Shown here piece after piece: positions 2,276-49,845 of a stretch of DNA of 64,000 nt; within the stretch, counting starts at the first letter, position 1, and each line of letters begins with the position of its first letter. This DNA is from Deltaproteobacteria bacterium RBG_16_64_85 (GTDB lineage: Bacteria; Desulfobacterota; Deferrimicrobia; Deferrimicrobiales; Deferrimicrobiaceae): positions 1,146 to 65,145 of the forward strand of contig MGQW01000008.1 in assembly GCA_001798885.1 (NCBI GenBank), read 5' to 3'. The notes under the pieces were generated by a model that saw nothing but the letters and a program-made list of their open reading frames with translations, was not told the DNA's origin and ran no database searches. Both the position numbers and the translations under genes were made by a program.

Positions 2276-2299
2276 GGGATTTCCCGCACGCCATAAAGG

Positions 2300-2305
2300 T
2301 ATAAT
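2300..2305 (+). promoter_or_regulatory. Putative sigma-70 -10 hexamer (TATAAT) upstream of tatA
   Basis: Perfect TATAAT about 35 nt upstream of the tatA ATG; the -35 element is weak. Confidence 0.3.
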
Positions 2306-2339
2306 GATTCTGTCGTAGGTCGCCGTTTGAGGAGGGAGC

Positions 2340-2525
2340 ATGTTCGGACTCGGATTGCCGGAGTTACTGGTTCTGCTGGTCATCGTCGTCCTGCTGTTCG
2401 GCGCGGGAAAGCTGCCGCAGATCGGACAGGGCCTGGGGGAAGGGATCCGCAATTTCAAGAAATCGATGAAGCAAAAAGACGAGGTCGACGTCACCCCTGC
2501 CAAGACCGACGACCAGAAAAAATAG
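2340..2525 (+). CDS. tatA: Twin-arginine translocase subunit TatA/TatE
   Basis: 61 aa, [26 protein letters not shown], the hallmark TatA N-terminus; GAGGAGGG RBS. Confidence 0.85.
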
Positions 2526-2545
2526 GCGCCCTTGCGGCGGCGCCT
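2524..2545. terminator. GC-rich hairpin (AGGCGCC-N8-GGCGCCT) between convergent tatA and the zinc-ribbon gene; possible bidirectional terminator without a U-tract
   Basis: 7-bp perfect inverted repeat located directly after the tatA stop codon. Confidence 0.25.
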
Positions 2546-2558
2546 CCATGGCGTCCCT

Positions 2559-3782
2559 TCAGTCGCTGTCCTTCGCTTCCAGGCGGTAGGCGCTGATCCC
2601 TTCGGGAGCGTTGATAAACACCACCATGAACGGCACGGATTTCCCCGGCGCGACGTCCATGTTGACCAGCTTTTCGCCGAACTGGTTGGAGAGGGATTCC
2701 TCGATCTTTTCACGGGTGGCCGTGCGCAGGGTTTCCGCGGAGAGGACGGTTCCCGCGTAGGAGGTTCTCTCCGCTAACGGCTGATCCTTGCTGTCCAGCA
2801 GCGCTGCGTGGATCCGGATGCCGCTCTTGCGGGTTCTTCCCATGTTCGCCACTTGGCCCTTGATGACAAACAGGTTCCCCGCCCTCGTGTTGGGTTCGTA
2901 GTAGCCGATCAGGTTCCTGACGTCGAATTGTGGGCCGGGCTTGCCGCTACGGGGCAGCCACAGCGATTCCATTCCGGGCACCAGCCCCCGCAGAAGGTCC
3001 TGCCCGTTCTTGGTGAACCCGAGGTAGGCCCCGCCTCCCGCAAGCGCAACGAACAGGAGGACAAGGGCGATCAGGGAGGGCCGCAAGGGCGGGGATGCCG
3101 CCTTCCGCGCCTCGGGCGGTCTCGTGGGAAGGGCTTCCCTGATTTTCCGCAATTCCGGCGAGACAGGAGCGTCCGGTGCGCTTTCCGCCGGAGCCGTCAT
3201 CGATTCCGGGGCGGCGGCGGATGGCGTCTCTTCCGTGGACTCCTGCCGGAGATGGGTGGAGAGATCGAACCTCTCCCCCTTCTCTTCTTTCCTGTGCTCC
3301 TCCTTCAGAAAGTCGTGGGCATCTCCGGTGCCGATGAGGAAATCGGGCATGGCCGCATCTTTCGGCGGTTCGGCGGGAAGATCGAGGTCGAACCTTTCCT
3401 CCGGCCGAAAGTCGATGGCGAGATCCGGAAGGGCGGTCGACTCTTTTTCCTCTTCCGCCGGCGAGGATTTCTCCGTCCCGCTGGTGGCGAGATATTTCCC
3501 GAAGGGGACATCGACCTCGTCTTTTCCCCCGGAGAGTCCGGCCGGGAGAGAGGGTTCCGGCGGCGCCTCTTCCGGCTTTTCCTCCATCGACTCCCGGATC
3601 ACGGAACGAAGGTCGAGGAAACCTTCGCCGGCCTCCTTCGCTGCTGCCGCCTGGGGTTCCTCGGGTTTCAAGACCATGATGGGCTCTCCGCAACGGCGGC
3701 AGCGGACCCGCGCCCCTCTCCCCTTGATCTTGGTCTCGTCCAGCCTGAACCGCGTCCGGCATGCGGGGCACTCGATGATCAT
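2559..3782 (-). CDS. MJ0042-type zinc-ribbon domain membrane protein with a C-terminal DUF3426-like domain
   Basis: N-terminal CPACRTRF...CRRCG zinc ribbon, acidic/Pro-rich linker, one TM helix (LIALVLLFVALAGGGAYLGF); ATG overlaps the hpt stop (ATGA). Confidence 0.55.
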   Translation of the reverse strand: MIIECPACRTRFRLDETKIKGRGARVRCRRCGEPIMVLKPEEPQAAAAKEAGEGFLDLRSVIRESMEEKPEEAPPEPSLPAGLSGGKDEVDVPFGKYLATSGTEKSSPAEEEKESTALPDLAIDFRPEERFDLDLPAEPPKDAAMPDFLIGTGDAHDFLKEEHRKEEKGERFDLSTHLRQESTEETPSAAAPESMTAPAESAPDAPVSPELRKIREALPTRPPEARKAASPPLRPSLIALVLLFVALAGGGAYLGFTKNGQDLLRGLVPGMESLWLPRSGKPGPQFDVRNLIGYYEPNTRAGNLFVIKGQVANMGRTRKSGIRIHAALLDSKDQPLAERTSYAGTVLSAETLRTATREKIEESLSNQFGEKLVNMDVAPGKSVPFMVVFINAPEGISAYRLEAKDSD

Positions 3783-4356: not shown

Positions 4357-5124
4357 AGCCTGCAGCCTCGCCTTGTGCCGGCGCGCTCCCATGGCGCAGA
4401 GCAGGATGCCGGCTTCGTAGAGGATATAGAGCGGGATGGCGATCAGGATCTGGGAGGCCACGTCCGGAGGCGTCAGGACGGCGGCCAGGAGGAGCACCCC
4501 CAGCACGGCCACCTTTCTCCCCTTGCGCAACAGAGCCGGGGTAAGGATCCCGGCCCGCCCGAGGAGGTACAGCATCAGCGGGAGCTCGAACATGATGCCG
4601 AAGGTGAGGAGCAGCCGAAGGATCAAGGACAGGGATTCCTTCATCGACGGCATGGGGACGATGACGGAGCGGCCGAACCCCAGGAAGAAGGAGAGGACCT
4701 GCGGGATGGCCACGAAATATCCGAACGCCATGCCGGCGAGAAGCCCGAACGTCGACCACGCGACGCAGATCTGGACGACCGTCCGCTCCCTTCGATAGAG
4801 GCCCGGGGAGACGAAGCGCCAGAGCTGGTAGAGGATCACCGGGCTGGCGAGGACGAACCCGCCCCAGAGGGCCACCTTGAAGTAGGTGAGAAACGCCTCG
4901 GTGAGTTCGGTGAAGATGAGGCGGGAATTGCCGGGGAGGTGGATGAATAGCGGCCGTAGCAACCACTCGTAGATGTCCTCCGACCAGTTGTAACAGAGTC
5001 CCGCCCCGACCCCGAGCGCAAGAAGGGAGCGGATCAGGCGCTTTCGCAGTTCCTCCAGGTGCTCGGAGAGAGGGAGCCGGACTTCCTCTTCATTACGGGC
5101 TTCCTCGCGGACTTCCTCACTCAT
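4354..5124 (-). CDS. tatC: Twin-arginine translocase subunit TatC
   Basis: 256 aa polytopic membrane protein; N-terminus LSEHLEELRKRLIRSLLALGVG typical of TatC. Confidence 0.9.
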   Translation of the reverse strand: MSEEVREEARNEEEVRLPLSEHLEELRKRLIRSLLALGVGAGLCYNWSEDIYEWLLRPLFIHLPGNSRLIFTELTEAFLTYFKVALWGGFVLASPVILYQLWRFVSPGLYRRERTVVQICVAWSTFGLLAGMAFGYFVAIPQVLSFFLGFGRSVIVPMPSMKESLSLILRLLLTFGIMFELPLMLYLLGRAGILTPALLRKGRKVAVLGVLLLAAVLTPPDVASQILIAIPLYILYEAGILLCAMGARRHKARLQA

Positions 5125-5146
5125 GCGGCGGGGAAACCCGACGGGC

Positions 5147-5386
5147 TCATCCCTGGGAGACCGGCGGGCGGGGCGTGGTCTCTTCCTTCGCGGCCTCCTC
5201 CTTCGGGGCTTCCTCCTTCATGGCCTCGTCAATGCTCTTCTTGACCTCCTCCGAGGCCTTCTTGAACTCGGCAAGCCCCTTGCCCAGACTCTTGGCCAGG
5301 TCCGGCAGCCGCTTCGGCCCGAAAAAGATCAGGACCACGACCAAGATGAGGAGCATCTCCTGGAAGCCGATCCCGAACATTTGCAC
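5147..5386 (-). CDS. Twin-arginine translocase TatA/TatB-family subunit (second copy)
   Basis: 79 aa, MQMFGIGFQEMLLILVVVLIFFGPKRLP; sits directly upstream of tatC. Confidence 0.8.
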   Translation of the reverse strand: MQMFGIGFQEMLLILVVVLIFFGPKRLPDLAKSLGKGLAEFKKASEEVKKSIDEAMKEEAPKEEAAKEETTPRPPVSQG

Positions 5387-5469
5387 CCCCGTGACGATCT
5401 TCTTTTACTACTATACCCCAGGGTTCCGTTCCAAATCCATGTTATCCAATAGGATAAAACCCGCTATCC

Positions 5470-5481
5470 GATCGGATGGAA
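5470..5481. promoter_or_regulatory. Perfect 12-bp palindrome ATCCGATCGGAT in a divergent promoter region
   Basis: Located between the minus-strand tat operon and the plus-strand ATPase-fusion operon; candidate operator. Confidence 0.2.
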
Positions 5482-5608
5482 GGAACGGATCGCGAACCTT
5501 CGCCCGAATGCGCAGACCGCCGTTTTACACGGATTTTTAAAAAGGCACGGCATTTGATAGGAAGATCCATTGAGGTCTTATCCACCACCGATCGCAGGGA
5601 GGAACCGC

Positions 5609-8600
5609 GTGTTCCTGGGTGTCGACATCGGATCGATCAGCGTGAAATTCGCCCTTTTCGTGCCGCCGGGAGGCGGGCCGGTGAGCGAGGAGGTTCTCGG
5701 GACGTTCCAGAATCCGGAGCCGATCGGGATTCCGGGAAGGGGGCAGGCGTATCTACTGTCCTACGATCGGCTCCTCGGGGATCCGAACCGGAAAGTTCCG
5801 GAGCGATTGCGGTACTGGCTGGGCACACTGGGAGCCTCCCGCGTGCCGTCCTTGGCCGTTACGGGGAAGGCCAGCAAGCACCTCTCGGAGAAACTTTCCG
5901 CCCATTACGAAAACGATTTTCGCTGCCTGGTGAAGGCGGTGACCGCGATCTACCCGGATGTCCGCACGATCTTCGAGATGGGAGGGGAAAACTCCAAGGT
6001 GATTCGCCTCGAACCCGGGCGCCCGGGCGAGGCGGTCCGGATCAAGGACTACGACACCAACGGGGACTGCGCCGCCGGCACGGGCTCCTTTATCGACCAG
6101 CAGGCCAACCGGATGCAGTTTGCCGTGGAGGAGATCGGGGAGATGGTCGTACGGGCCGCGAATTCGGCCAGGATCGCCGGGCGCTGTTCCGTGTTCGCCA
6201 AGTCCGACATGATCCATGCCCAGCAGAAGGGGTTTTCCCCCGAGGAAATCCTGAAAGGTCTGTGCGAGGCGGTGGCCCGCAACTTCAAGAGCAACATCAA
6301 TAAGGGGAAAGACCCGGGACCGAAGGTGGCGCTGGCCGGCGGATTGTTCGCAAACCAGGGGGTCGTCCGGGCGGTCTGCGACGCATTCGGGTTCGCCTCC
6401 GGGGACGTCGTCCTTTCCCCCGGCTTCGCGCACCTGAGCGCCATCGGGGCTGCGCTGGCGGCGGCGGAGATCCCGGCGTCGGAGAGGAAAGTCGTTATTG
6501 CGGAGATCTCCGATTCGGACGTCGGGAAGGAGTTCCATAAATCCTTCCCGGCCTGGCCGAGGCTGTCCACGGAAAACGTCGTCTTCCTCCGGGACCGGGT
6601 GGCTCCTCCTCCCCGGATCGAGGGGAAGCCGGAAGTCTTCCTCGGAATCGACATCGGTTCGGTGAGCACCAATTTCGTCCTCACCGACTGGGAGGGGAAT
6701 CTCCTGAAGGAGATTTACGTCGGCACGCAGGGGCGCCCCGTCCAGGTGGTCACCGACGGCCTGCGGGACCTGTGGGAGGAGTTTGGCGACACGGTGACGA
6801 TCCGAGGGGTGGGGACCACCGGTTCGGGCCGGGAGCTCATCGGGGAGCTGGTGGGAGCGGACACGGTCCAGGACGAGATCACGGCCCACAAGACCGGCTC
6901 CACCTTCATCAGCCGCCGCTTCTTCGACCAGCCGGTCGACACCATCTTCGAGATCGGGGGGCAGGATTCCAAGTTCATCGGCCTCGAAAACGGGGTCGTG
7001 GTGGACTTCGCGATGAACGATGCCTGCGCGGCGGGGACGGGATCGTTCCTCGAGGAGCAGGCGGAGCGGCTGGGCATCCAGATCAAGGGAGAGTTCGCCA
7101 CGCTTGCGCTCTCCTCCAAGGCGCCGATCCGGATGGGCGAGCGGTGCACGGTGTTCATGGAGCAGGACCTGAACAACTTCCTCCACCTGGGCGCGGAAAA
7201 GATCGACCTCGTGGCGGGGCTGGCTTATTCCGTGGTCCTCAACTACCTCAACCGGGTGGTCCGCGGGCGCAGGATCGGCGACACCATCTACTTCCAGGGA
7301 GGAACGGCCTACAACGACGCCGTGGCGGCCGCCTTCACGCACGTCCTGGGGAAGAAGATCATCGTCCCGCCGCACAACGGGGTCATCGGCGCCATCGGCA
7401 TGGCGCTGCTCGCGCGAGACAAGGTGAAAGCGCTCGGACGGTCCACACGGTTCCGCGGGTTCGACCTCCAGCAGGTGGACTACCGGCGCCGGGAGTTCGT
7501 CTGCAAGGGGTGCAGCAACGTCTGCGACATGCAGGAGATCCAGGTCGACGGGACGCGCACCTACTGGGGCGACAAGTGCTCCGAGAAGTACCGGAAGGCC
7601 GCCCGCACCGAGACGCGGCCGGTGATCGACGACCTGCCGGCGCGCCGGGCCGAGTACCTCGACCGATTGGCCGAGGGAGCCGAGAGCGGGCCGCGGGGGA
7701 TCGCGGGATATCCCCGCGCCATGTACTACTTCGAGCGGTTCCCGTTCTGGAAGGGGTTCCTCTCGGCCGTCGGGTTCGGGGTGAAGGTCAGCCCGCGGAC
7801 CGACAAGACGATCGCCCGCGAGGGGCTCGAGCTTACGGTCGCGGAGCCGTGCTACCCGATCCAGGTCGCCCACGGACACGTGGCGGCGCTGCTTCGGGAC
7901 GGGATCGACTTCCTGTTCGTCCCCAACGTCATCAACTCGGAGACGGAGCACATGCACACCGAATCCCACTTCTGCCCCTGGGGGCAGACGCTGCCGTTCG
8001 TGCTGGGCGCCGTTCCCAAGTGGGAGAAGGAGCTGCGCCAGAAGCTGCTGTCTCCCACGGTGCGCTTCCGGGACGGCGAGAAGTACGTCGTCGAGGACCT
8101 GTTCGAGTGCTTCGGTTCCCTGGGCGTCTCCCGCCGCGAGATCCGGGAAGGGATACGCGCCGGAACCCGCGAGCAGCGGAAGTTCCACGACTTCCTGATG
8201 AGCGCGGGGGCCGTCGCGGTATCCGAAGTGGAGAAGGCGGGGGCCAACGCCATCGTCCTGCTCGGCCGCCCGTACAACCTGTACGACCGCGACATCAACC
8301 TGAACATCCCCTCCAAGCTGCGTGACCAGTACGGGGCCAACGTCCTCCCGATCGATTTCCTTCCCGTGGACGACATCGACATCCGGGACATCCACGACAA
8401 CATGTTCTGGAACTACGGGAGGAAGATCATCGCCGCGGCGAGGTGGTGCCGGCCCCGCCCGAAATTCCACTTGATCTACATCACGAACTTCAAGTGCGGG
8501 CCGGATTCGTTCATCCGTCATTTCATCACCCGCGCCTCGGAGTCGCCGTATCTCTCGCTGCAGTTCGACGGGCACGGCAACGACGCGGGATACATGACCC

Positions 8601-32866: not shown

Positions 32867-32937
32867 TGGGAGGTCGTCTAACGGCAGGACAGGGGCCTTT
32901 GGAGCCTCTAATGAAGGTTCGACCCCTTCCCTCCCAG
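32867..32937 (+). tRNA. tRNA-Gln (anticodon UUG); 3' CCA not encoded
   Basis: Hand-folded cloverleaf: U1-A72 acceptor pair, U8, A14, G18G19, A21, U33, anticodon TTG, TTCGA T-loop, G73 discriminator; acceptor TGGGAGG/CCTCCCA. Confidence 0.65.
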
Positions 32938-36743: not shown

Positions 36744-37061
36744 ATGAGAAGGATCCTTTTTCCCGTATTCGGCCTGCTGACGATCGCCCTCCTTGCCGGC
36801 TGCTACCCCAGGGGGCAGATTTACGGCGTGGGCAACGAGGGGGGACTGATCTTCGCGGTGAACCCACCGGACGCCGAGGTCGTGCTGGATGGCGTCATCC
36901 AGGGAAAGGCTTCGGAGTTCACCGAGGAGAGGTATCTCAAAGTGGCCAGTGGAACCCACAAGCTGGAGATTCGGCTCGCCGGCTTCGAGACGTACAACCG
37001 GGAACTCTACGTGTCGAATTCCCTGCTGCGGATCGAAACGACGCTGGTCCGGAAAGAGTAA
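36744..37061 (+). CDS. PEGA-domain-like lipoprotein
   Basis: Lipobox LLAGC; NPPDAEVVLDG...GTHKLEIRLAGFETY resembles a PEGA domain. Confidence 0.45.
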   Translation: MRRILFPVFGLLTIALLAGCYPRGQIYGVGNEGGLIFAVNPPDAEVVLDGVIQGKASEFTEERYLKVASGTHKLEIRLAGFETYNRELYVSNSLLRIETTLVRKE

Positions 37062-37071
37062 AGGGAAAATC

Positions 37072-37179
37072 GGGGACGTTCTTGAACTTTTGGAAAAGTT
37101 GGGGACGTTCTTGAACTTTTACAACATCCCTTCATAAAAAGTTCAAGAACGTCCCCAACTTTATTACAAGAACGTCCCC
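37072..37179. repeat. Cluster of four copies of a 20-nt motif GGGGACGTTCTTGAACTTTT (two direct, then two inverted) filling the gap between convergent genes
   Basis: Copies at 37072-37091 and 37101-37120; reverse complement AAAAAGTTCAAGAACGTCCCC at 37136-37156; partial CAAGAACGTCCCC at 37167-37179; same family recurs at 48.9 kb. Confidence 0.7.
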
Positions 37180-37194
37180 AATATCAAACGCCCT

Positions 37195-38547
37195 TTACTT
37201 TTTCCGGACGGCTCCCCACCAGGCCTTGAGACGATCCGAGATCGTCTTTTCGTAGCCCGCTTCCGAGGGCTCGTAATATTTGCGCCGGCCGAGCGTCTCG
37301 GGGAAGTAGTTCTCCGGGACGAAGGCCTCCGCGAAGTCGTGGGGGTACTGGTACTTCTCGCCGTATCCCAGCTCCTTCATCAGGCGGGTGGGGGCGTTGC
37401 GCAGGTGCATCGGCACCGGGTGGCTCCCCCCGCCCTGCACGTCCTTCATGGCACGGCCGAACGCCGTGTAGACCCGGTTGCTCTTGGGCGCGGTGGCGAG
37501 ATAGACGACCGCCTGGGCCAGTGCCAGCTCGCCTTCGGGGCTCCCCAGCGTGCGGTACGCCTCTGCCGCCGCAAGGGTGAGCTGGAGGGCTCCCGGGGCC
37601 GCATTCCCGACGTCCTCCGACGCGAAGCGGATCATCCGGCGGGCGATGTAGAGGGGGTCCTCGCCCGCCGAAAGCATCCGCGCCAGCCAGTAGAGGGCGG
37701 CGTCGGGGTCGGACCCCCGCAGGCTCTTGTGGAATGCCGAGATGAGATTGTAGTGCTCCTCCCCGTCCTTGTCATAGAGCAGCGCCTTCCTCCGGAGCGC
37801 CTCCTCGGCCACGGGCACGTCGACCTGCTCGAGGTTCCGGTGCTCCGCGATCGCTACCGCTGCCTCCAGCGCGTTCAGGGCGACGCGCGCGTCCCCGTCC
37901 GAGATCTCCACGATGTGCCGTAGGGCGTCGGGGGAGAGGAACGATTCCTTCTTTCCCAGTCCCCTTTCCGCTTCGGTCAATGCCCGCCGCGCGATGATTT
38001 CCACCTCGGCCGGAGCCAGGGGAGTGAGGACGAGAACGCGACAACGGGAAAGAAGCGCGTTGCGGATCTCGAACGAAGGATTCTCCGTCGTGGTTCCGAA
38101 GAGAGTGACGGTGCCGTCCTCGACGAATGGGAGCAGCGCGTCCTGCTGGGCCTTGTTGAACCGGTGGATCTCGTCGATGAAGAGGATCGCGGGTCGGCCC
38201 GCGGAGCGTCCGCTCCGTTTCAACTCGGAGAGCGCGTCCTTGATTTCCTTGATCCCGGAGAGGACGGCCGAATAGGGGAGAAAGACCGCCTTCGTCTCCG
38301 TGGCGATGATCCGGGCGAGCGTCGTCTTCCCCGATCCGGGGGGGCCCCAGAAGATCAGCGAGGGAAGGGGACGGGCCGAGAGCACAGAGGAGAGGAACCT
38401 CCCCTCCCCCAGGATCTCCTCCTGCCCGACGAATTCGAGGAGCGTCCTGGGGCGCATCCGGTCGGCAAGGGGAGCGCGGGGCGGCTGCGCGCCGGGAAAC
38501 AGCGAAAATGGCGGCCGGGGCTCGGTCATGGGCTTTCTCTTTTTCAT
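37195..38547 (-). CDS. rarA: Replication-associated recombination protein A (RarA/MgsA AAA+ ATPase)
   Basis: Walker A GPPGSGKTT, LFIDEIHRFNK, and the C-terminal MgsA helical domain. Confidence 0.9.
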   Translation of the reverse strand: MKKRKPMTEPRPPFSLFPGAQPPRAPLADRMRPRTLLEFVGQEEILGEGRFLSSVLSARPLPSLIFWGPPGSGKTTLARIIATETKAVFLPYSAVLSGIKEIKDALSELKRSGRSAGRPAILFIDEIHRFNKAQQDALLPFVEDGTVTLFGTTTENPSFEIRNALLSRCRVLVLTPLAPAEVEIIARRALTEAERGLGKKESFLSPDALRHIVEISDGDARVALNALEAAVAIAEHRNLEQVDVPVAEEALRRKALLYDKDGEEHYNLISAFHKSLRGSDPDAALYWLARMLSAGEDPLYIARRMIRFASEDVGNAAPGALQLTLAAAEAYRTLGSPEGELALAQAVVYLATAPKSNRVYTAFGRAMKDVQGGGSHPVPMHLRNAPTRLMKELGYGEKYQYPHDFAEAFVPENYFPETLGRRKYYEPSEAGYEKTISDRLKAWWGAVRKK

Positions 38548-38860
38548 TATATTCCGGATTGTCGGAAGTGGCGATGCAGGCGATGTCGGAGCATGATTAC
38601 CCCGGCGACGTTTCGTATTTACAACGTATTTGCAAAGCGGGTGAAATCAGGAGCCGCCGGACTCTCCGCGAATTAGAAAAGATCGCGATTGAAAGTGCCC
38701 TCGGAAAAATTTAAACTGCCTCCGGGAACATGCCGGGGAATTGGGACGCATCTTGGAGATGGATGCGAGCGATATCTTTCCGGTAGTGCAGTCAGCTCGC
38801 CGGCAGAAATCGGATCAGGATATGATTCCGTTGAAAATTCAGAACCATTAAGGGGAGTCT

Positions 38861-39910
38861 ATGAAAAAAGCGCTGACCGTCCATCTGGTTCTGGTGGGTT
38901 TGTTTGTCATCGGATTACAGGGAAAGGGATTCTGTCAGGAGCCAAGGAAAGACTGCTTTTTCTTCTCCAGTCTCCATTATACCGCGAAAGGGATGGCTTA
39001 TTGGTACGACAAGACCAATGGTGGATTGGAAATCCTTACAGGTGTCCCTTATTCAAACCTCGGGTGTAAGAATTGCCATACCCCGGGGTGTGATCGGTGC
39101 CATAAAGTTGAAAAGGATGGGAAAGCAGCCTATTCCACCAAAGCAGCAAAGAAACAAGAGATGTGTCTTGAATGCCATGCCCGTGAGCAGGCGATCCTTA
39201 AAATTGACAGGGCATCGAAACAGGAGGATGTCCATTTTGCTCTGGGAATGGCTTGTATGGACTGTCATTCCCAAAGAGAGGTGCATGGGGATGGGATCGA
39301 ATATGTCTCCATGAAACAAACTGGGGCCATGGATACAAAATGCGAGAAATGCCATAACTCCACCAAACCAACCGATTCTCATGCTGTACATAAGGAAAAA
39401 CTGGATTGTAAATCATGCCATGTTCGACATGTCGTCAGTTGTACGAATTGTCACTTTGAAACCCTTGTCAAAGAAGGAAAGCGTGTCTCCATTCCGGTTT
39501 CCGGATGGGTATTCCTCATGAACTACGGCGGAAAGGTAACTTCGGCGAACATGCAGACCTTCTTGGTAAAAGGCGACAAGACATTTTTCATGTTTGCCCC
39601 GCAGATGAGTCACTCTGTGATGAAAATGGGCAGGAAATGTGAAGATTGTCACGGCACAGAAACCATGAGACAGGTTCAGAAGGGGAATGTTTCTTTAACC
39701 TGGCTTGAAGAAGGAAAAGTAATGAATTTAAAGGGGGTTATTCCGGTAGTGGATGGAGTGGACTACCAATGTGTCTATCAAGATTTCAAGGAAGGAAAAT
39801 GGATTCCGATCAAAAATCCTTCCAAACCGATTTATCATTATCCCGCATTTGGTAAACCTCTTACGAAAGAACAACTCGATAAGCTTGCGGAGCGTATGGG
39901 GAGAAAGTAA
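38861..39910 (+). CDS. Secreted octaheme c-type cytochrome
   Basis: Signal peptide plus eight CxxCH motifs (CKNCH, CDRCH, CLECH, CMDCH, CEKCH, CKSCH, CTNCH, CEDCH); markedly lower G+C and A/T-rich codon choice than flanking genes. Confidence 0.85.
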   Translation: MKKALTVHLVLVGLFVIGLQGKGFCQEPRKDCFFFSSLHYTAKGMAYWYDKTNGGLEILTGVPYSNLGCKNCHTPGCDRCHKVEKDGKAAYSTKAAKKQEMCLECHAREQAILKIDRASKQEDVHFALGMACMDCHSQREVHGDGIEYVSMKQTGAMDTKCEKCHNSTKPTDSHAVHKEKLDCKSCHVRHVVSCTNCHFETLVKEGKRVSIPVSGWVFLMNYGGKVTSANMQTFLVKGDKTFFMFAPQMSHSVMKMGRKCEDCHGTETMRQVQKGNVSLTWLEEGKVMNLKGVIPVVDGVDYQCVYQDFKEGKWIPIKNPSKPIYHYPAFGKPLTKEQLDKLAERMGRK

Positions 39911-40000
39911 CCGAAGACACACGATTTAACAATGCGTCATTGTCCGCGGAAAGGAAAGTATTCAGGCCTCGTGGAGATCGTGCGGGCCCGGAACGGAATG

Positions 40001-40028
40001 GACCGGTTCATCCTGTGACCGGTTCATC
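40001..40028. repeat. Tandem direct repeat GACCGGTTCATC-N4-GACCGGTTCATC
   Basis: Two exact 12-mers 4 nt apart, between the convergent cytochrome and OsmC-like genes. Confidence 0.3.
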
Positions 40029-40045
40029 GGGACCCTTTCACGCAC

Positions 40046-40480
40046 CTATCGAAAGAACCCCTCGACCATGACCTTTGTCTTTATCGAATTGGAAATCAGA
40101 CAGTTGGCTTCCACCTTGGCCATTATCTCTTTGGCCTTTCCGGCATCCTCACTGTTCTTCAAGGTCACCTTCGGTCTCAGCGTGACCGAAGTCACCTGAA
40201 ACTTGCCGTCAACCAGTTCCAGGCGGCCTTCGGCATCGCACTCGTAGTCCGTAAAGGACAAGCCAGCCCGTTCGGCAAAAGCCAGAAACGTAGACAGGAC
40301 ACAAACATTCACAGAGGCAACATACAGATCCTCCGGTGACCAAATGCCCTCGTGCCCCTTGAACTCCGGCGGAGTCGCCACCTGGATGTCGGGTTTCCCC
40401 GGCGACGAGGCCACTCCCATCTTTTGCCCGGTCCATTTCACCGCCGTACGATAGGAGTAGACTTTGCCACGGACTTCCAT
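40046..40480 (-). CDS. OsmC/Ohr-family peroxiredoxin-like protein
   Basis: About 140 aa with the OsmC fold pattern (...ASVNVCVLSTFLAFAER...EANCLISNSIK); the second ATG after GGGAGG is chosen as start; ORF track extends to 40600. Confidence 0.7.
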   Translation of the reverse strand: MEVRGKVYSYRTAVKWTGQKMGVASSPGKPDIQVATPPEFKGHEGIWSPEDLYVASVNVCVLSTFLAFAERAGLSFTDYECDAEGRLELVDGKFQVTSVTLRPKVTLKNSEDAGKAKEIMAKVEANCLISNSIKTKVMVEGFFR

Positions 40481-40734
40481 TTTCATACCTCCCGTCGTAT
40501 CTGTCCAAAACAGGTCTTTTCTAAAATGGAATGGTGCGTCGGCGTTCCTTCCACTCCGGTCTTCTTTTTCCCAGGAATGCCTGCACCCCTTCCACGGCAT
40601 CTTCCTTGGCGCAGAGGGTGGCGAACAGATGGATCGTCAGGCACAACGCGATTCACCAGACCGTGTTTTTCGGTCGCCATCCTTCCTTCTTCGAGAGCTC
40701 AAGGGAACCGTCGTCCCCCTCTTTACACGATTCC

Positions 40735-40941
40735 TCATTCCTCGATCTCTACGACATCTGGAACATATCCAGTCCCGCCGCCACCGCAGCTGGTCTGGCC
40801 GCCCATCTCGGCATCGATAAGATCCGCAAGGAGGCGGGCATGATCGACCAAACTACGTTTGCAGTAGAGGGGGTCGGGCAATCCGGCTGTCGCAATATCA
40901 TCCTTGGTGGTGGTCTCCGTAACGACGAACCTGGAACTCAT
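40735..40941 (-). CDS. Small hypothetical protein (about 68 aa, 3 Cys)
   Basis: ORF 40735..41010 trimmed to MSSRFVV...; no recognisable family; lies in the lower-GC island. Confidence 0.2.
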   Translation of the reverse strand: MSSRFVVTETTTKDDIATAGLPDPLYCKRSLVDHARLLADLIDAEMGGQTSCGGGGTGYVPDVVEIEE

Positions 40942-41187
40942 CCTATCCCCCTTGCAGGAAAAGGGCCCCGGTCCGCCTTGTGTGGTCGCTCCTCCCACGC
41001 TAAAATCCACGGATCCCGGCGATCCGCAGGGATGCTATAGTATCCCCGTAACCGGATCATTCGGCAATCGCTTTTCAAGCGACACCGAAAACGGTCGGAG
41101 AAAGTGAATCATTCGCACTGAAGGGTTGGTTTGCGTGGGAGTTACAGGTCTTTCTCTTTTCCTTCCGATATATTATCCTAATCCCCG

Positions 41188-45531: not shown

Positions 45532-46197
45532 ATGGCGGCGGAGCCGCTGTTCATCTTCGACCTCGACAACACGCTTTATCCGCCGGAGGTGAGCCTCTGG
45601 CGGATCGTGGACGCCCGAATCGAGCGCTACGTCCAGGAGAGGCTCGGCGTGAACCCGGAGGCCGCCCGGCGTGTCCGCAAGGACTTCCTGCAGGAGTTCG
45701 GGACCACCCTGCGCGGCCTCATGCACTATCATGATGTTCCGCCGGGAGAATATCTCGAATACGTCCATGACGTGCCGATCCCGGAGATCGTCCCCCCGCG
45801 GCCCGACCTCCGGAGCATGCTCTCCGGGCTCCCGGGGAGGAGCGTGGTATTCACCAACGGCTCGGAGTCGTATGCCCGCCGGGTTCTCAAGGCCCTGGAC
45901 GTTTCGGACATGATGGAAGGAATCTACGGGATCGAATTCATGGAGTACATCGCCAAGCCGTCGCCCTACCCGTATGCCAAGCTCCTGCAGGCGACCGGGG
46001 CCCGCGCGGAGGCCTCCCTGTTCTGCGAGGACGTCCGCGAGAACCTGCTTCCGGCCCGAGAGCTCGGCATGTTCACCGTCTGGGTGGGGGGCAGGGAAGA
46101 GGCATCTCCCGCCCATGCCGTGGTGAGCGACGTGTGCGAACTTCCGGGGATCCTGCCGAGGTTCCTGGAGCCGAAAATTTCAGGAGGAAATCGATGA
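45532..46197 (+). CDS. HAD-superfamily hydrolase (pyrimidine 5'-nucleotidase-like)
   Basis: HAD motif I FIFDLDNTLY; ATG at 45532 preferred over ORF start 45079. Confidence 0.7.
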   Translation: MAAEPLFIFDLDNTLYPPEVSLWRIVDARIERYVQERLGVNPEAARRVRKDFLQEFGTTLRGLMHYHDVPPGEYLEYVHDVPIPEIVPPRPDLRSMLSGLPGRSVVFTNGSESYARRVLKALDVSDMMEGIYGIEFMEYIAKPSPYPYAKLLQATGARAEASLFCEDVRENLLPARELGMFTVWVGGREEASPAHAVVSDVCELPGILPRFLEPKISGGNR

Positions 46198-48437
46198 CGG
46201 AAAAGAAAGGAAAGCGCAGGTACTGGAGGCGACGCCCCCGGCGCAAGGATGGAGAGGCAGCGGAATCCGCGCCTCCCGCTTCGCCTCAGTCCGGCCAGTT
46301 TCCCGGCGAGGGGGAATCCTCGAGCGGGGCGTCTGTTGAGGGAGAAGACGTACTTCCAGGAGGGGACAAGGTCCAAGCGCCGGAGGAATCGCAGGAGGCG
46401 CTGACGCGGCCGGAAATCCAGGAAGTCGCAAAAACGGTCGAGGGCGCAACCGCTGCGCCGAAGGGGCGCCGCCGCCGGTCGCGCCGGCGGGGAAGCAAGG
46501 GAGCGCAGGCAAGCCCCCCGGACCAGCCGCAGGGAGAGCAAGCGACGCAGCCGTTTGGGGGTTCTTCCTCCGAGGGGGCGACCGGCGCGGGGGAGGAAAC
46601 GCCGCAGGAATACGGTGCGACCCCGGCGATCCCGGAGGGTTTTCCAACGGAGGGGTGGGAGGAAACCGCGGCGGATCCGCAAGACACGAAAGGGGCGCAG
46701 GCGGGGGAACCCGGAGGCGAGCCGAAGAAGGGAAGGCGGCGCAGTCGCCGCCGGGGACGGCATCGCGGGAAAGGATTGCCGCAGACGCCCGAAGGGGAAC
46801 CCGTTCCCGAAGGTGCTCCCGCACAGGGAGAGTTCAACGGCGGGGCGGAAGGGACCTCCTCCGAGGAGCCCGTCGCGGCGCGAGAGGCCGTCGAGGAGAT
46901 CGAGGCGCGGCAGGACGAGGAGGAGTACGGGGAGGAAGCCTCCGCCGAAACCGCCGGCAAGGGGCCGCGGAAGGTGATGCTGATCGACGGGATCCACCCG
47001 GAAGAGATCCGGGTGGCATTCGTCAGCGACGGAAATCTCGACTACTTCGAGGTGGAGAACCAGCGCAGGAAGCAGTTCAAGGGGAACATCTACAAGGGCA
47101 AAGTGGTCAACGTCGCCCATGCGATCGAGGCGGCCTTCGTCGAGTTCGGAGGCGGGCGGCACGGCTTCCTCCCTCTGAACGAATACTGCGGCGGCGCGCT
47201 GATGGAGAACCTCGGGACGTGGAACGAGGGGGACAAGCGCCCCCACCTGCGGCCCGGGGTGGAGATCCTTGTCCAGGTGACCAAGGAGGAGTCCTCCATC
47301 AAAGGGGCCGCCCTCACCTCGTACATCAGCATCGCGGGGCGGTACCTCGTGATGATGCTGGGGATGAAACGGTACGGGATCTCGAAGAAGATCTCGAACG
47401 AGAAGGAGCGGGAGCGGATCCGGAAGAACATGGAGAAGCTGACCTACCCGGATCACCTGGGGTTCATCGTCCGGACGGTGGGGGCGGGGCAGCCCCTGAA
47501 AGATCTCAAGGCGGACCTCGAGAACCTGCTCAAGCTGTGGGACCGGACGGTGGAGGGGGCGCGCACGCAGAAGGCGCCGGCGCTTCTCTACGAGGAGCAG
47601 GACATCGTCATCCGGACGCTGCGGGACAGGTACTCGTCCGACGTCTCGGAAGTCCTGATGAACTCGGCCGACTCGTACCGCAAGGCGCAGGCGTTTTTCG
47701 ACGTCTACTATCCGAAGCAGATGCAGAAGCTCAGGCTGGTCCGGCAGAAACGGCCCCTGTTCTTCAAGTTCAACCTCGAGGAGCAGCTGGAGAGGGCCTG
47801 CGCCCGCAAGGTGGCGCTTCCCTCCGGCGGGCACATCGTGATCGACAGGACCGAGGCGCTGTGGTCGATCGACGTCAACTCCGGCCGGTCGGCCAAGGAC
47901 CGGGACATCGAGGACACGGCCTACCGGACCAACAAGGAAGCGGCATCGGAGGTGGCGCGGCAGCTCCGGATCCGCGATATGGGAGGCTTGATTGTCGTCG
48001 ATTTCATCGACATGGAGAACCGGAACCATATCAAGGACGTCGAGAAGACCCTCAAGGACACCCTGAAAAAGGACAAGGCGAAAAGCGACGTCTCCAACAT
48101 GGGGAAATTCGGTCTGGTGGGGATCAGCCGGCAGCGGATGGGGATCTCCTTCTACGACGTCGTGATGAAGGGATGCGACGTGTGCTTCGGCACGGGCTCC
48201 CATCCCACGCCGGACGCCGTGATGGTGCGTTTCCTGCGGCGGGTCCACAGCGAGCTGTCGCGCGACCCTGCGAAAGACCTGGCGGTCCGCGTGTCGCCGC
48301 AGCTCCTGGAGGCGCTGCTGAACCAGAAGCGCGAGGAGGTCACCTCCCTGGAGAAAATGTGCGGGGCCCGCGTCGTCTTCGAGGTGGACGCCTCTCTCCC
48401 CCCCGGGTCTTATTCCGTGGGCGAAGGGACGACATGA
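46194..48437 (+). CDS. rne: Ribonuclease E/G with a roughly 270-aa N-terminal Arg/Glu-rich disordered extension
   Basis: Catalytic core (S1 domain, DNase I-like region, Zn-link CxxC-type motifs) lies in the C-terminal 480 aa; N-terminus has multiple RRRSRRRG segments; ATG overlaps the upstream stop. Confidence 0.85.
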   Translation: MTEKKGKRRYWRRRPRRKDGEAAESAPPASPQSGQFPGEGESSSGASVEGEDVLPGGDKVQAPEESQEALTRPEIQEVAKTVEGATAAPKGRRRRSRRRGSKGAQASPPDQPQGEQATQPFGGSSSEGATGAGEETPQEYGATPAIPEGFPTEGWEETAADPQDTKGAQAGEPGGEPKKGRRRSRRRGRHRGKGLPQTPEGEPVPEGAPAQGEFNGGAEGTSSEEPVAAREAVEEIEARQDEEEYGEEASAETAGKGPRKVMLIDGIHPEEIRVAFVSDGNLDYFEVENQRRKQFKGNIYKGKVVNVAHAIEAAFVEFGGGRHGFLPLNEYCGGALMENLGTWNEGDKRPHLRPGVEILVQVTKEESSIKGAALTSYISIAGRYLVMMLGMKRYGISKKISNEKERERIRKNMEKLTYPDHLGFIVRTVGAGQPLKDLKADLENLLKLWDRTVEGARTQKAPALLYEEQDIVIRTLRDRYSSDVSEVLMNSADSYRKAQAFFDVYYPKQMQKLRLVRQKRPLFFKFNLEEQLERACARKVALPSGGHIVIDRTEALWSIDVNSGRSAKDRDIEDTAYRTNKEAASEVARQLRIRDMGGLIVVDFIDMENRNHIKDVEKTLKDTLKKDKAKSDVSNMGKFGLVGISRQRMGISFYDVVMKGCDVCFGTGSHPTPDAVMVRFLRRVHSELSRDPAKDLAVRVSPQLLEALLNQKREEVTSLEKMCGARVVFEVDASLPPGSYSVGEGTT

Positions 48438-48889
48438 TCGAACGGAAGGACAGGGTGGACCCCTCCGTCCAGGACCGCGCCACGCAGGATCGGCTGCACC
48501 GCCTCTGCCGCCGGTACATCCGGGTGGCCTTTTTCTACCTTGCCCTGGGCCTGCTCCTGGGCGCGGGGATGCTCGCCTTCGGCAACGACAACTTCCAGTT
48601 CGTCCACACCCACATGCTGCTCATCGGGTTCGTCCTCTTCCTGATCTACGGCATCGGGTTCAAGCTGATCCCCACGATGTTCTTCGGTCTGCCCCGGGTC
48701 GCCTCCATCGGCTGGGCGGAAGTCCAGTTCTGGCTGGCCAACGTCGGGCTGGCGGGCATGCTGGTCGGTGCCATGATGCCGGTGGGCCTGGGGCTGGACC
48801 GGATCTCCGTCCTCTTCGGGCTCGTCGAAGCCGCCGCAGGGATTCTCTTCGCGGCCCTGATGGGAAAAACGATCCAGGGCCGTTCCTGA
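48434..48889 (+). CDS. Hypothetical 4-TM membrane protein
   Basis: 151 aa, hydrophobic; ATG overlaps the rne stop; the long ORF 46655..48889 is otherwise an off-frame artefact. Confidence 0.5.
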   Translation: MIERKDRVDPSVQDRATQDRLHRLCRRYIRVAFFYLALGLLLGAGMLAFGNDNFQFVHTHMLLIGFVLFLIYGIGFKLIPTMFFGLPRVASIGWAEVQFWLANVGLAGMLVGAMMPVGLGLDRISVLFGLVEAAAGILFAALMGKTIQGRS

Positions 48890-48997
48890 AAACTTTTGTC
48901 TGAAGTTCGGGGACGTTCTTAAACTTTTTAATGTCCCCTTGCCCAGGGATTAAAAAGTTTAAGAACGTCCCCAGACAAAAGTTTTCAGGAACGCCTG
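48878..48997. repeat. About 120-bp near-perfect nested palindrome containing inverted copies of GGGGACGTTCTTAAACTTTTTAA
   Basis: Outer arms CCTGAAAACTTTTGTCTG / CAGACAAAAGTTTTCAGG; inner arms share the 37.1-kb repeat family; the palindrome overlaps the stop codon at 48887-48889. Confidence 0.7.
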
Positions 48998-49027
48998 ATC
49001 GGGAAGACGATCGGCGGGAAATAGCGA

Positions 49028-49798
49028 CTACGGCAGAAGCCTCTCCGACGGATGATAGGTCCGGAAGCCGTACTCGCCCTCCGCCGTCAGGAAGAAGTGC
49101 CGCCACTCCTCCCGCCACGAGGGCAGCACAGCGAGCACCTTTCCCGCCTCTCCTTGAGCGAATCGCAGGAGACGCTCCGAATGGAAATGGCCGAGGATTA
49201 CGAAATCCACGCCTGCCGTGAACTGCCGCAACGCGAACTCGCGGCAATCCTTTTCCGGGAACGATCCACGGAAGCGGTGGTTGGTCCGCTTGAGCTTCCT
49301 CTCCAACCGGTCGGCGAGCGGAAGGACGACCGAGGAGGGAAGCGCGGAGACGGCTCCGAAGGCGAGGCGGTTCTTCGAGATGGCCTTCCAGAACCGATAG
49401 GCGATGTCGGCGCGGTTGACCGTGTCCCCGTGGGAAAGGTAGAGCCTCTTCCCTCCGACGGCCGCTCTCATTTCCACCTCGGCCACCGAGTCGAACGTTT
49501 GTCCTTCGTGGTACTTTTTCAGATAGAAATCCCGGTTCCCCTCCACATAATATAAACGTAGTCCTCCGCGGCGCAGTTCCCGCAGGCGCGAGATGACCGG
49601 CTTCTGGAACCCGAAGGTGAGGTCGGGACTGCCGAACCACAGGTCGAACACGTCGCCCAACAGGAACAGGGCAACGTTTTCGGCAGCGGCTTTTTCGGCG
49701 AGGGCGACGAAATTGCGGGAATGGATGTCGTCTTGGTTCAGGTGGGCGTCGGACAGGAAGACCGCACGCTCCGGGGAGATCGGGGACCCCTTTTCCAT
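49028..49798 (-). CDS. lpxH: LpxH-like metallophosphoesterase (UDP-2,3-diacylglucosamine diphosphatase family)
   Basis: AVFLSDAHL, GDVFDLWFG and GNRD motifs; start placed at MEKGSP (ORF track starts 21 nt earlier at a TTG). Confidence 0.65.
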   Translation of the reverse strand: MEKGSPISPERAVFLSDAHLNQDDIHSRNFVALAEKAAAENVALFLLGDVFDLWFGSPDLTFGFQKPVISRLRELRRGGLRLYYVEGNRDFYLKKYHEGQTFDSVAEVEMRAAVGGKRLYLSHGDTVNRADIAYRFWKAISKNRLAFGAVSALPSSVVLPLADRLERKLKRTNHRFRGSFPEKDCREFALRQFTAGVDFVILGHFHSERLLRFAQGEAGKVLAVLPSWREEWRHFFLTAEGEYGFRTYHPSERLLP

Positions 49799-49845
49799 AC
49801 GTTGAATACGATAGCACAAGATTCGCCGGCGGGGAGGTGCAAGGG

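Follow-up and report, generated by a model that had tools for sequence, protein, structure and literature searches.

A nested palindrome between convergent genes of a Deferrimicrobiaceae bacterium as a probable copy of a REP-like repeat family with a core found in several phyla

What kind of element is a long, nearly perfect palindrome that takes in the stop codon of a gene? The question is raised by a 64,000-nucleotide stretch of contig MGQW01000008.1 from Deltaproteobacteria bacterium RBG_16_64_85 (Deferrimicrobiaceae); this whole stretch is called the window below, and its first letter is position 1. At the site designated locus 2, a repeat search of the window delimited a nested palindrome of 113 bases (48881-48993) with perfectly complementary arms. 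The palindrome is probably one copy of a non-autonomous, hairpin-forming family that works like the REP, BIME and REPIN elements, with inverted and sometimes tandem units that carry the invariant 12-mer GGGGACGTTCTT. The initial annotation had offered two readings, a mobile or selfish palindromic element and a dedicated bidirectional terminator family. The former is supported by what was found: a dispersed family of many copies, empty, filled and footprint states at one and the same site, and a variable number of interior units.

Structure and folding of the palindrome at locus 2

The outer left arm (CGTTCCTGAAAACTTTTGTCTG, 48881..48902, plus strand) and the outer right arm (CAGACAAAAGTTTTCAGGAACG, 48972..48993, minus strand) are each 22 nt long and 100% complementary to each other. 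They enclose two inner arms of 24 nt, again 100% complementary, namely the inner left arm GGGGACGTTCTTAAACTTTTTAAT (48909..48932, plus strand), with the core at 48909-48920, and the inner right arm (48949..48972, minus strand), with the core at 48961-48972 on the minus strand. The 16-nt centre GTCCCCTTGCCCAGGG (48933..48948) starts with the inverted half-core GTCCCC, and it was observed that GGGGAC or GTCCCC is also frequent in the loops of other family copies among the matches listed. A 6-nt bulge, AAGTTC (48903..48908, plus strand), is present on the left side only. The nested structure had been recognised in the initial annotation, and only its lengths (outer arms of about 24 nt, inner arms of 23 nt and a centre of 18 nt) had to be corrected by one or two bases. 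At the outer edge lies AGGGCCGTTCCT (48876..48887, plus strand), which agrees with the core at 9 of 12 positions, reads G-R-S-stop together with the next bases and would represent a degenerate outer core unit. With indels allowed, the complementarity of locus 2 reaches about 48870-49001.

The predicted RNA fold of the plus strand had an energy of -82.6 kcal/mol, compared with a mean of -35.2 for 200 shuffled sequences (z = -12.7), none of which equalled it; the extreme hairpin potential that had been noted from the letters was therefore borne out. For the minus strand the value was -82.8 kcal/mol (z = -11.4), shuffles lying at about -35 to -37 on both strands, and the DNA fold reached -56 kcal/mol (z = -14.9). 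The resulting hairpin has a stem of 46 bp and is AT-rich within a genome of 65% GC.

The rewritten gene end and the states of the site in relatives

Locus 2 separates two convergent genes, as had been annotated. On the plus strand, a small membrane-protein gene of 151 amino acids (48434..48889; an open reading frame (ORF) with a weak COX1-like Pfam match) runs into the palindrome, and its TGA stop (48887..48889) was indeed located inside the left outer arm (48881-48902). On the minus strand, an LpxH-like metallophosphoesterase gene (49028..49819) scored below the cut-offs of the LpxH models that it matched; 35 nt separate its stop from the right arm, and this stop is unaltered by the insertion and has the same context in L121 (matching loci are referred to by L numbers).

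The element itself encodes the last codons of the membrane-protein gene (…Q-G-R-S) and the TGA that follows them. Tails of …KTI(S/G)GK* are found in homologues that lack the element, and tails of …KTIQGRS* in those with the element or a footprint of it. The tails of the homologues in the database, which are labelled Candidatus Deferrimicrobiaceae or 'Deltaproteobacteria bacterium', track these site states as well (SGK or GGK versus QGRS, KGRS or QKQGRS). The order of the parts at locus 2 is a left direct-repeat copy D1 (CCTGATGGGAAAAACGATC, 48856..48874, 19 nt), the hexamer CAGGGC, the palindrome, a right direct-repeat copy D2 (CCTGATCGGGAAGACGATC, 48994..49012, 19 nt) and then ggcgggaaaTAGcgaCTA…. 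On the basis of the empty site in L121, D1 is the original coding sequence of …ALMGKTI, and it was also found in L243 and L245. The reading frame now enters the element and continues as …K-T-I-Q-G-R-S-stop. The displaced ancestral 3′ end (GGGAAGACGATCGGCGGGAAATAG, 49001..49024, plus strand), which encodes G-K-T-I-G-G-K-stop and is now non-coding, aligns with the gene end …gggaaagacgatcagcgggaaaTAGcgaCTAcggcag of the empty site in L121. Set against that empty site, the element is shown to have replaced the original last codons, which on this comparison survive downstream as the direct repeat, and to provide a new tail and stop.

Unrelated proteins, including this membrane protein and several sugar epimerases, end in (K/Q)GR(S/T/A)* because the core plus a purine (R) reads GG GGA CGT TCT TGA/TAA, that is, G-R-S-stop. 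Genes that end …GR(S/T/A)* through a core were found in L166, L171, L175, L145, L174, L217 and L241 and at window positions 48876-48889. Four ORFs among the matches listed stop exactly 14 nt into a core, where the core followed by G or A gives an in-frame stop.

The same site was then found in several other states. It is empty in L121, where the membrane protein is 96% identical and the gene end reads …gatgggaaagacgatcagcgggaaaTAGcgaCTAcggcag with two stop codons 3 nt apart, and it is likewise empty in L124. L243 carries the outer arms at the same place as in the window but five inner cores, an expanded state. In L245 a footprint was observed in which D1, CAGGGCCGTTCC and D2 are kept and the palindrome is gone, apparently through deletion between CCTGA repeats; L244 holds a similar footprint. 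L122 and L123 have a lone degenerate unit slightly further downstream, and elements in L122, L123 and L238 have the variant AGGGACGTTCCT at their outer edge. The empty sites may be ancestral, or they may derive from precise deletion between D1 and D2. Whichever state is ancestral, the comparison points to an element that is gained, remodelled and lost at this site on short time scales, and its occurrence among close relatives is patchy. A search for target-site duplications, as advised in the initial annotation, gave a direct repeat of about 16-19 nt at locus 2 and no signal across the family.

A dispersed family in the lineage of the window

Six copies of the core GGGGACGTTCTT were counted in the window, at 37072 (+), 37101 (+), 37145 (-), 37168 (-), 48909 (+) and 48961 (-), compared with 0.73 sites expected at up to one mismatch. 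A profile of related units detected only these six core sites, and they lie at two convergent-gene junctions. Locus 1 and locus 2 had been described as having a common core; all six copies are exact, and within the window they are confined to these two loci. Locus 1 (37066..37182) consists of four core units in the order + + - - (37072, 37101, 37145 and 37168) between a PEGA-domain gene and mgsA/rarA. The tail of the PEGA gene with its TAA (GTCCGGAAAGAGTAAAGGG, 37047..37065, plus strand) repeats the mgsA 3′ end (37191-37209) in inverted orientation. L047 has a syntenic element of different architecture at the locus 1 site, in which TGA replaces TAA on both arms, so that the stop codon covaries. 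The locus 1 site is empty in L122 and L124.

Metagenomes were scanned with the pattern GGGGACGTTCTTNAACTT, which specifies 17 bases, and at least 118 loci were obtained; many single-core matches in low-GC contigs are probably due to chance with so few specified bases and were excluded as evidence. At least 44 inverted pairs were catalogued from the metagenome matches listed and three genome loci; all lie outside genes or touch no more of one than its stop codon. The exact 24-nt inner arm GGGGACGTTCTTAAACTTTTTAAT was present in at least 42 copies in at least 34 loci, though only 17 of its bases had been specified in the scan, and it can be regarded as the master sequence. A unique occurrence, which would have spoken against a repeat family, is excluded by these copies and by the six cores in the window.

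Among the matches listed, loops of the family range from 12 to more than 110 nt, and the outermost units are often degenerate cores (AGGGCCGTTCCT and AGGGACGTTCCT) with canonical units inside. A second arm type, type B, consists of AAAAAYTTTDTCTG plus the AAGTTC bulge and forms the outer layer in the window, L047, L180, L011, L073 and L243. In the window its arm part is AAAACTTTTGTCTG, within the outer left arm (48881..48902), and the AAGTTC hexamer beside the core is kept in L047, L180, L011 and L073. Elements were also found nested in the loops of other elements, for example at 3112-3276 of L011. As for copies per genome, two loci (six units) were seen in the 64-kb window, up to seven units in 14.6 kb of L216, and several contigs per metagenome-assembled genome (MAG); L216 contains two near-identical 66-nt copies at different sites. 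At the orthologous etfB-etfA site, the two species represented by L166 and L175 have the same 24-nt arms but differ in the loop and in the coding flanks, and identical arms with a diverged loop are the REPIN pattern (PMC3116915).

The flanks of the at least 44 elements were inverted-complementary above permuted pairs (mean score 7.4 versus 5.5, sd 0.23). The direct-repeat score beside the cores of these elements was not raised (5.2 versus 4.9 permuted), and there was no direct-repeat signal beyond the outer arms either.

Two further arrangements of elements were observed. In L177 (1169-1685) two inverted half-elements 500 nt apart enclose a DoxX-family membrane-protein gene, as if it lay in the loop of an element, in a cassette-like manner. 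In L180 (about 400-595) a palindrome of roughly 190 nt lies downstream of a uvrC fragment and has an extra perfect 21-nt outer arm, CGTTCCGGCTGGCGACGACTT, past an asymmetric internal loop.

A core common to several phyla

A 596-Gb genome collection was searched for the inverted core pair GGGGACGTTCTT-N25-55-AAGAACGTCCCC, and at least 120 loci were found compared with 0.07 expected by chance. Among the matches listed, the taxa were Collinsella (the majority), Syntrophomonadaceae/Syntrophomonas, Clostridia MAGs, 'Deltaproteobacteria'/Deferrimicrobiaceae, Nitrospiraceae, Elusimicrobia and Myxococcota, and several genomes supplied more than one contig. The core GGGGACGTTCTT is thus present in at least six bacterial phyla (Actinomycetota, Bacillota, Deferrimicrobiota, Nitrospirota, Elusimicrobiota and Myxococcota), with carriers from 28% GC (Clostridia MAGs) to 70% GC (Myxococcota). 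Beyond the 12-mer the sequence is lineage-specific, and at the 5′ edge about 0.2 of the 2 bits of information content remain.

In Collinsella, Syntrophomonadaceae and Clostridia the bases flanking each core are mutually complementary, with sequences that differ by lineage (TAGTCATT/AAATGACTA, CCAACAA/TTGTTGG, GAAGCAA/TTGCTTC and CAACCAAT/ATTGGTTG), and the pairing in Collinsella amounts to 86-95%. A placement of every core in the loop of a small local hairpin was considered; it holds strongly in Collinsella and partially in Bacillota and fails in the lineage of the window, and it was rejected as a universal property. Since flank pairing fails there, the universal feature, as far as these sequences tell, is the core itself together with inverted pairing. 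Arrays have a spacing of 23-29 nt, L097 shows four tandem 23-nt units, and the number of units at one locus varies between Collinsella species (three or four). In the Collinsella arrays 283 of the 311 clustered core-like sites are exact.

No match to the element was obtained in viral contigs, plasmids or phages. Rfam 15 gave none at the gathering threshold, and at E <= 10 its matches were confined to generic models of miRNA-precursor hairpins, with scores far short of the thresholds; the Collinsella copies matched neither Collinsella-1 nor any other Rfam family. A literature search with the core string returned only unrelated primers, and one for Collinsella repeats or RNA motifs turned up only Weinberg 2010.

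Placement of the elements and neighbouring genes

When both neighbouring genes were called, the elements among the matches listed lay between co-directional genes in 11 cases, between convergent genes in 6 and between divergent genes in none, and the first core began 0-15 nt past a stop codon. Many copies are inside operons, wedged between a stop codon and the next ribosome-binding site, as in gmd-fcl and etfB-etfA.

No recurrent transposase was detected next to the elements by all-against-all clustering of ORFs across taxa or by Pfam scans of 242 adjacent ORFs, which gave only housekeeping and polysaccharide genes. The elements are accordingly taken as non-autonomous, because their neighbourhoods hold ordinary housekeeping genes and no recurrent transposase. 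A local tblastn search with an IS200 TnpA query, which was a weak test, likewise found no IS200-like ORF in about 1.65 Mb of neighbourhoods. Three tyrosine recombinases were located near cores: one integrase, twice, by a lone degenerate core, and one XerD-like protein by a probable chance match. In the two integrase cases (L195 3-1230 and L211 1915-3160) about 100 nt separate one and the same phage-type integrase gene from the lone degenerate core hairpin CGTTCTT-GTAAAGTTG-AAGAACGTCCCC; this proximity may be fortuitous or may mark the border of an island.

Elements were frequent in sugar-nucleotide, O-antigen and capsule clusters, with gmd, fcl, epimerases, Wzi and glycosyltransferase 4 as neighbours. 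Such polysaccharide clusters were seen in L011 (800-3400), L137, L167, L216, L069 (1-2800), L032 and L039. Among the adjacent ORFs 14 of 175 were epimerases or dehydratases; capsule genes are present in L216, and genes for nucleotidyl transferase or phosphomannomutase in L069, L032 and L039, which belong to other phyla. The association with sugar-nucleotide and capsule genes was also present in Clostridia and Syntrophomonadaceae. This bias may reflect a route of horizontal spread or a niche in which the elements are tolerated. In the capsule cluster of L216, paralogous AAA_14 + DUF4143 ATPase genes (2284-3459 and 5077-6402) are each edged by single core units.

Other features of the window were recorded as well. 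Near locus 1 lies a low-GC island (38600-41150, 42-57% compared with about 65% GC) which encodes a multihaem cytochrome c (38861-39910, plus strand) and an OsmC-like protein (40046-40600, minus strand). It is missing from the syntenic L122 and L124, where the gap between mgsA and the NAD kinase gene is 42 nt, and it looks like a recent insertion without an obvious mobility gene. With a multihaem cytochrome c and an OsmC-like protein as its products, it was rejected as a source of a transposase. The N-terminal third of the RNase E/G gene (46134-47100) is extremely purine-rich (AT skew as high as 0.5), and its product there is highly charged and of low complexity. A tRNA gene (32867-32937) was the sole Rfam match in the window at the gathering threshold.

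Comparison with known repeat systems

REPINs, or REP doublets mobilised by RAYTs, have conserved ends, a variable spacer and compensatory changes (Bertels and Rainey, 2011; PMC3116915). The present elements resemble them in being hairpins of about 100 nt with two conserved inverted ends, a less conserved spacer and compensatory changes. They are also alike in that some form ordered tandem clusters, in their extragenic position, in being kept at orthologous sites and in singlets that appear as decay products. However, the GTAG (or GGAG) head is missing beside the units, the conserved block being GGGGACGTTCTT, and no RAYT (Y1 HUH transposase) flanked by units was found in the window or in about 1.65 Mb. 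The 12-mer is common to several phyla, whereas REPIN sequences are lineage-specific and vertically inherited, and the long direct repeat of target DNA at locus 2 is a further difference. The BIMEs of Escherichia coli are mosaics of REP units in alternating orientation with defined linkers. The family shares with them mosaic arrays, alternating or tandem units, family-specific linkers and a strain-variable number of units (three or four in Collinsella; L097 and L243), but the sequence of the unit is another one.

The GTAG- and CGTC-tagged REP super-families have a short tag beside a lineage-specific palindrome and occur in several phyla, and the genes on either side of REPs are co-directional or convergent (Di Nocera et al., 2013; PMC3733652). 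The placement of our elements, co-directional or convergent and never divergent, matches this distribution, and the CGTC type is similar in that no dedicated transposase adjoins it (PMC3733652). On the other hand, the phyla that carry our family are not among the five with CGTC repeats (PMC3733652). CGTC is present on the reverse strand of the core (AAGAACGTCCCC), and the adjoining stem starts with A/T pairs, again as in CGTC repeats. The tag, however, has 12 nt instead of 4, three C residues stand between CGTC and the palindrome, stems are 5-11 bp with variable loops in place of the rule of 8-9 bp and 4-5 nt, and the CCA tail is missing.

ERIC/IRU sequences are transcribed palindromic repeats of enterobacteria that resemble miniature inverted-repeat transposable elements (MITEs). 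Like them, the elements are imperfect palindromes of about 120 nt in transcribed intergenic regions or 3′ ends, present or absent at orthologous sites; unlike them, they have a phylum-spanning core, and there is no sequence similarity between the two. With intrinsic terminators they have in common a stable hairpin at gene ends and between convergent genes, whereas the stem is far longer (46 bp), a U-tract is lacking on the plus strand, the hairpin is AT-rich and many copies are inside operons. An integron attC site was rejected, as inspection revealed no R″/R′ boxes (RYYYAAC … GTTRRRY) and the elements lie between convergent housekeeping genes. A sigma-54 promoter, a hix-like invertase site, a DNA-uptake sequence, a tmRNA 5′ end and Tn3-type inverted repeats were rejected on sequence or spacing. 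The element is therefore best described as REP-like and outside every named family.

Proposed origin and rival explanations

If the palindrome is a REP-like element, its copies would spread within genomes through a single-stranded hairpin intermediate, handled by a core-recognising enzyme encoded elsewhere. New units would insert into the centre of older copies, giving the nesting that is degenerate outside and canonical inside. Intrastrand template switching, a mechanism known from quasipalindrome correction, would keep the arms perfectly complementary and extend them into the flanks; palindromes would then overlap stop codons because their arms grow outward by this step. Deletion between short repeats would remove elements again. 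The 46-bp hairpin in the 3′ untranslated end of both convergent transcripts would be a by-product, perhaps acting as a block to 3′ exonucleases or as a site of RNase III cleavage, and not as a classical terminator.

Several points weigh against this account. The cognate enzyme, RAYT or other, was not found in the window or in about 1.65 Mb of neighbourhoods, the GTAG tag is absent and the architecture of CGTC-REPs does not fit. A direct repeat of 16-19 nt is not known to result from transposition of the IS200/RAYT type, and none was seen at other copies. Mobility is deduced from comparison between genomes, and a phylum-spanning invariant 12-mer appears unusual for REP families, which are normally lineage-specific.

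A first rival reading is a classical MITE, that is, a deletion derivative of a DDE-type insertion sequence or transposon with terminal inverted repeats starting GGGGACGTTCTT, moved in trans as double-stranded DNA and leaving a target-site duplication. The inner element does start with GGGG and end with CCCC, it has perfect 24-nt terminal inverted repeats, the insert at locus 2 (and in L243 and L245) is flanked by the 16-19-nt target direct repeat, and the two near-identical copies of L216 occupy different sites. Yet a fixed-length duplication at every copy was not encountered, given the absence of a general direct-repeat signal at cores or beyond the outer arms. Nor was there a full-length element with these ends or a recurrent transposase in about 1.65 Mb, or any match in plasmids, phages or viral contigs, and tandem or mixed-orientation arrays of 23-29-nt units are atypical of MITEs, so that we regard this origin as unlikely. 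A host-selected RNA element at 3′ ends, non-mobile and serving as a bidirectional terminator or as a family of mRNA-stabilising hairpins, would account for the very stable hairpin, for the position, which among the matches listed always follows closely on a coding region and never falls between divergent promoters, for arms kept at orthologous sites while loops drift, and for the minus-strand T-run TCGTTTTTCC after the hairpin. A U-tract does not follow the hairpin on the plus strand, however; the consensus scan of locus 1 gave one terminator-like site, which was not at the element and no more than in shuffles, and those of locus 2 were small minus-strand sub-hairpins at a rate no higher than in shuffles. 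Many copies lie between co-transcribed genes, bases before a ribosome-binding site, where termination would be harmful; close relatives lack the element at the same junctions; and a host terminator offers no reason for a 12-mer invariant across phyla of 28-70% GC. Such an element is thus quite improbable here, and the dedicated bidirectional terminator family of the initial annotation is not supported as a general function, since the plus strand has no U-tract and many copies are inside operons (etfB-etfA, gmd-fcl).

The units could also be arrayed binding sites of a conserved protein that binds DNA or RNA, and the 12-mer would then be conserved because the protein is; a factor of the nucleoid or of DNA topology is one example, an ops-like signal read by a NusG paralogue in polysaccharide operons another. 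The invariant core in lineage-specific surroundings, the regular 23-29-nt spacing and the over-representation of the core by sugar-nucleotide and capsule genes in several phyla are all in line with this. The units are nevertheless patchy among close relatives, occur in both orientations within one array and are placed at 3′ ends instead of 5′ leaders; most neighbours are unrelated housekeeping genes and no candidate protein is known, and we hold such an array to be about as improbable as a host-selected RNA element. As for an assembly artefact, a palindromic chimera or fold-back read, a caution raised with the initial annotation, chimeric reads can yield perfect long palindromes; but gene order on both flanks of locus 2 is conserved in four independent assemblies, elements of this architecture that differ in sequence detail recur in many independent assemblies, and the palindrome is asymmetric in its 6-nt bulge and its 16-nt non-palindromic centre. 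An artefact is thereby practically eliminated.

A wider proposal goes beyond the REP-like reading and is put forward only tentatively, as possible but rather doubtful. The 12-mer GGGGACGTTCTT could be the recognition site of a horizontally spreading enzyme system, either a new hairpin-DNA transposase or nuclease or a conserved host factor exploited by the elements. In at least six phyla, this system would build palindromes that grow from the centre by self-targeted insertion and rewrite gene 3′ ends into …GRS* tails.

Biological meaning

REP-like hairpin repeats at gene ends are already known as a class; what is unusual here is a repeat core that spans phyla. A block of 12 bases is identical across gut Actinomycetota, Clostridia, syntrophic Bacillota and several groundwater or sediment phyla, from 28% to 70% GC, in surroundings that are all different. 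REP-like repeats are usually lineage-specific, and no mobilising enzyme is known for whole super-families such as the CGTC type; the invariant core offers a sharp handle toward the protein that recognises it. The series of empty, filled, expanded and footprint sites at locus 2 illustrates, in turn, how such palindromes may arrive, grow, alter the C-termini and stop codons of genes, and vanish.

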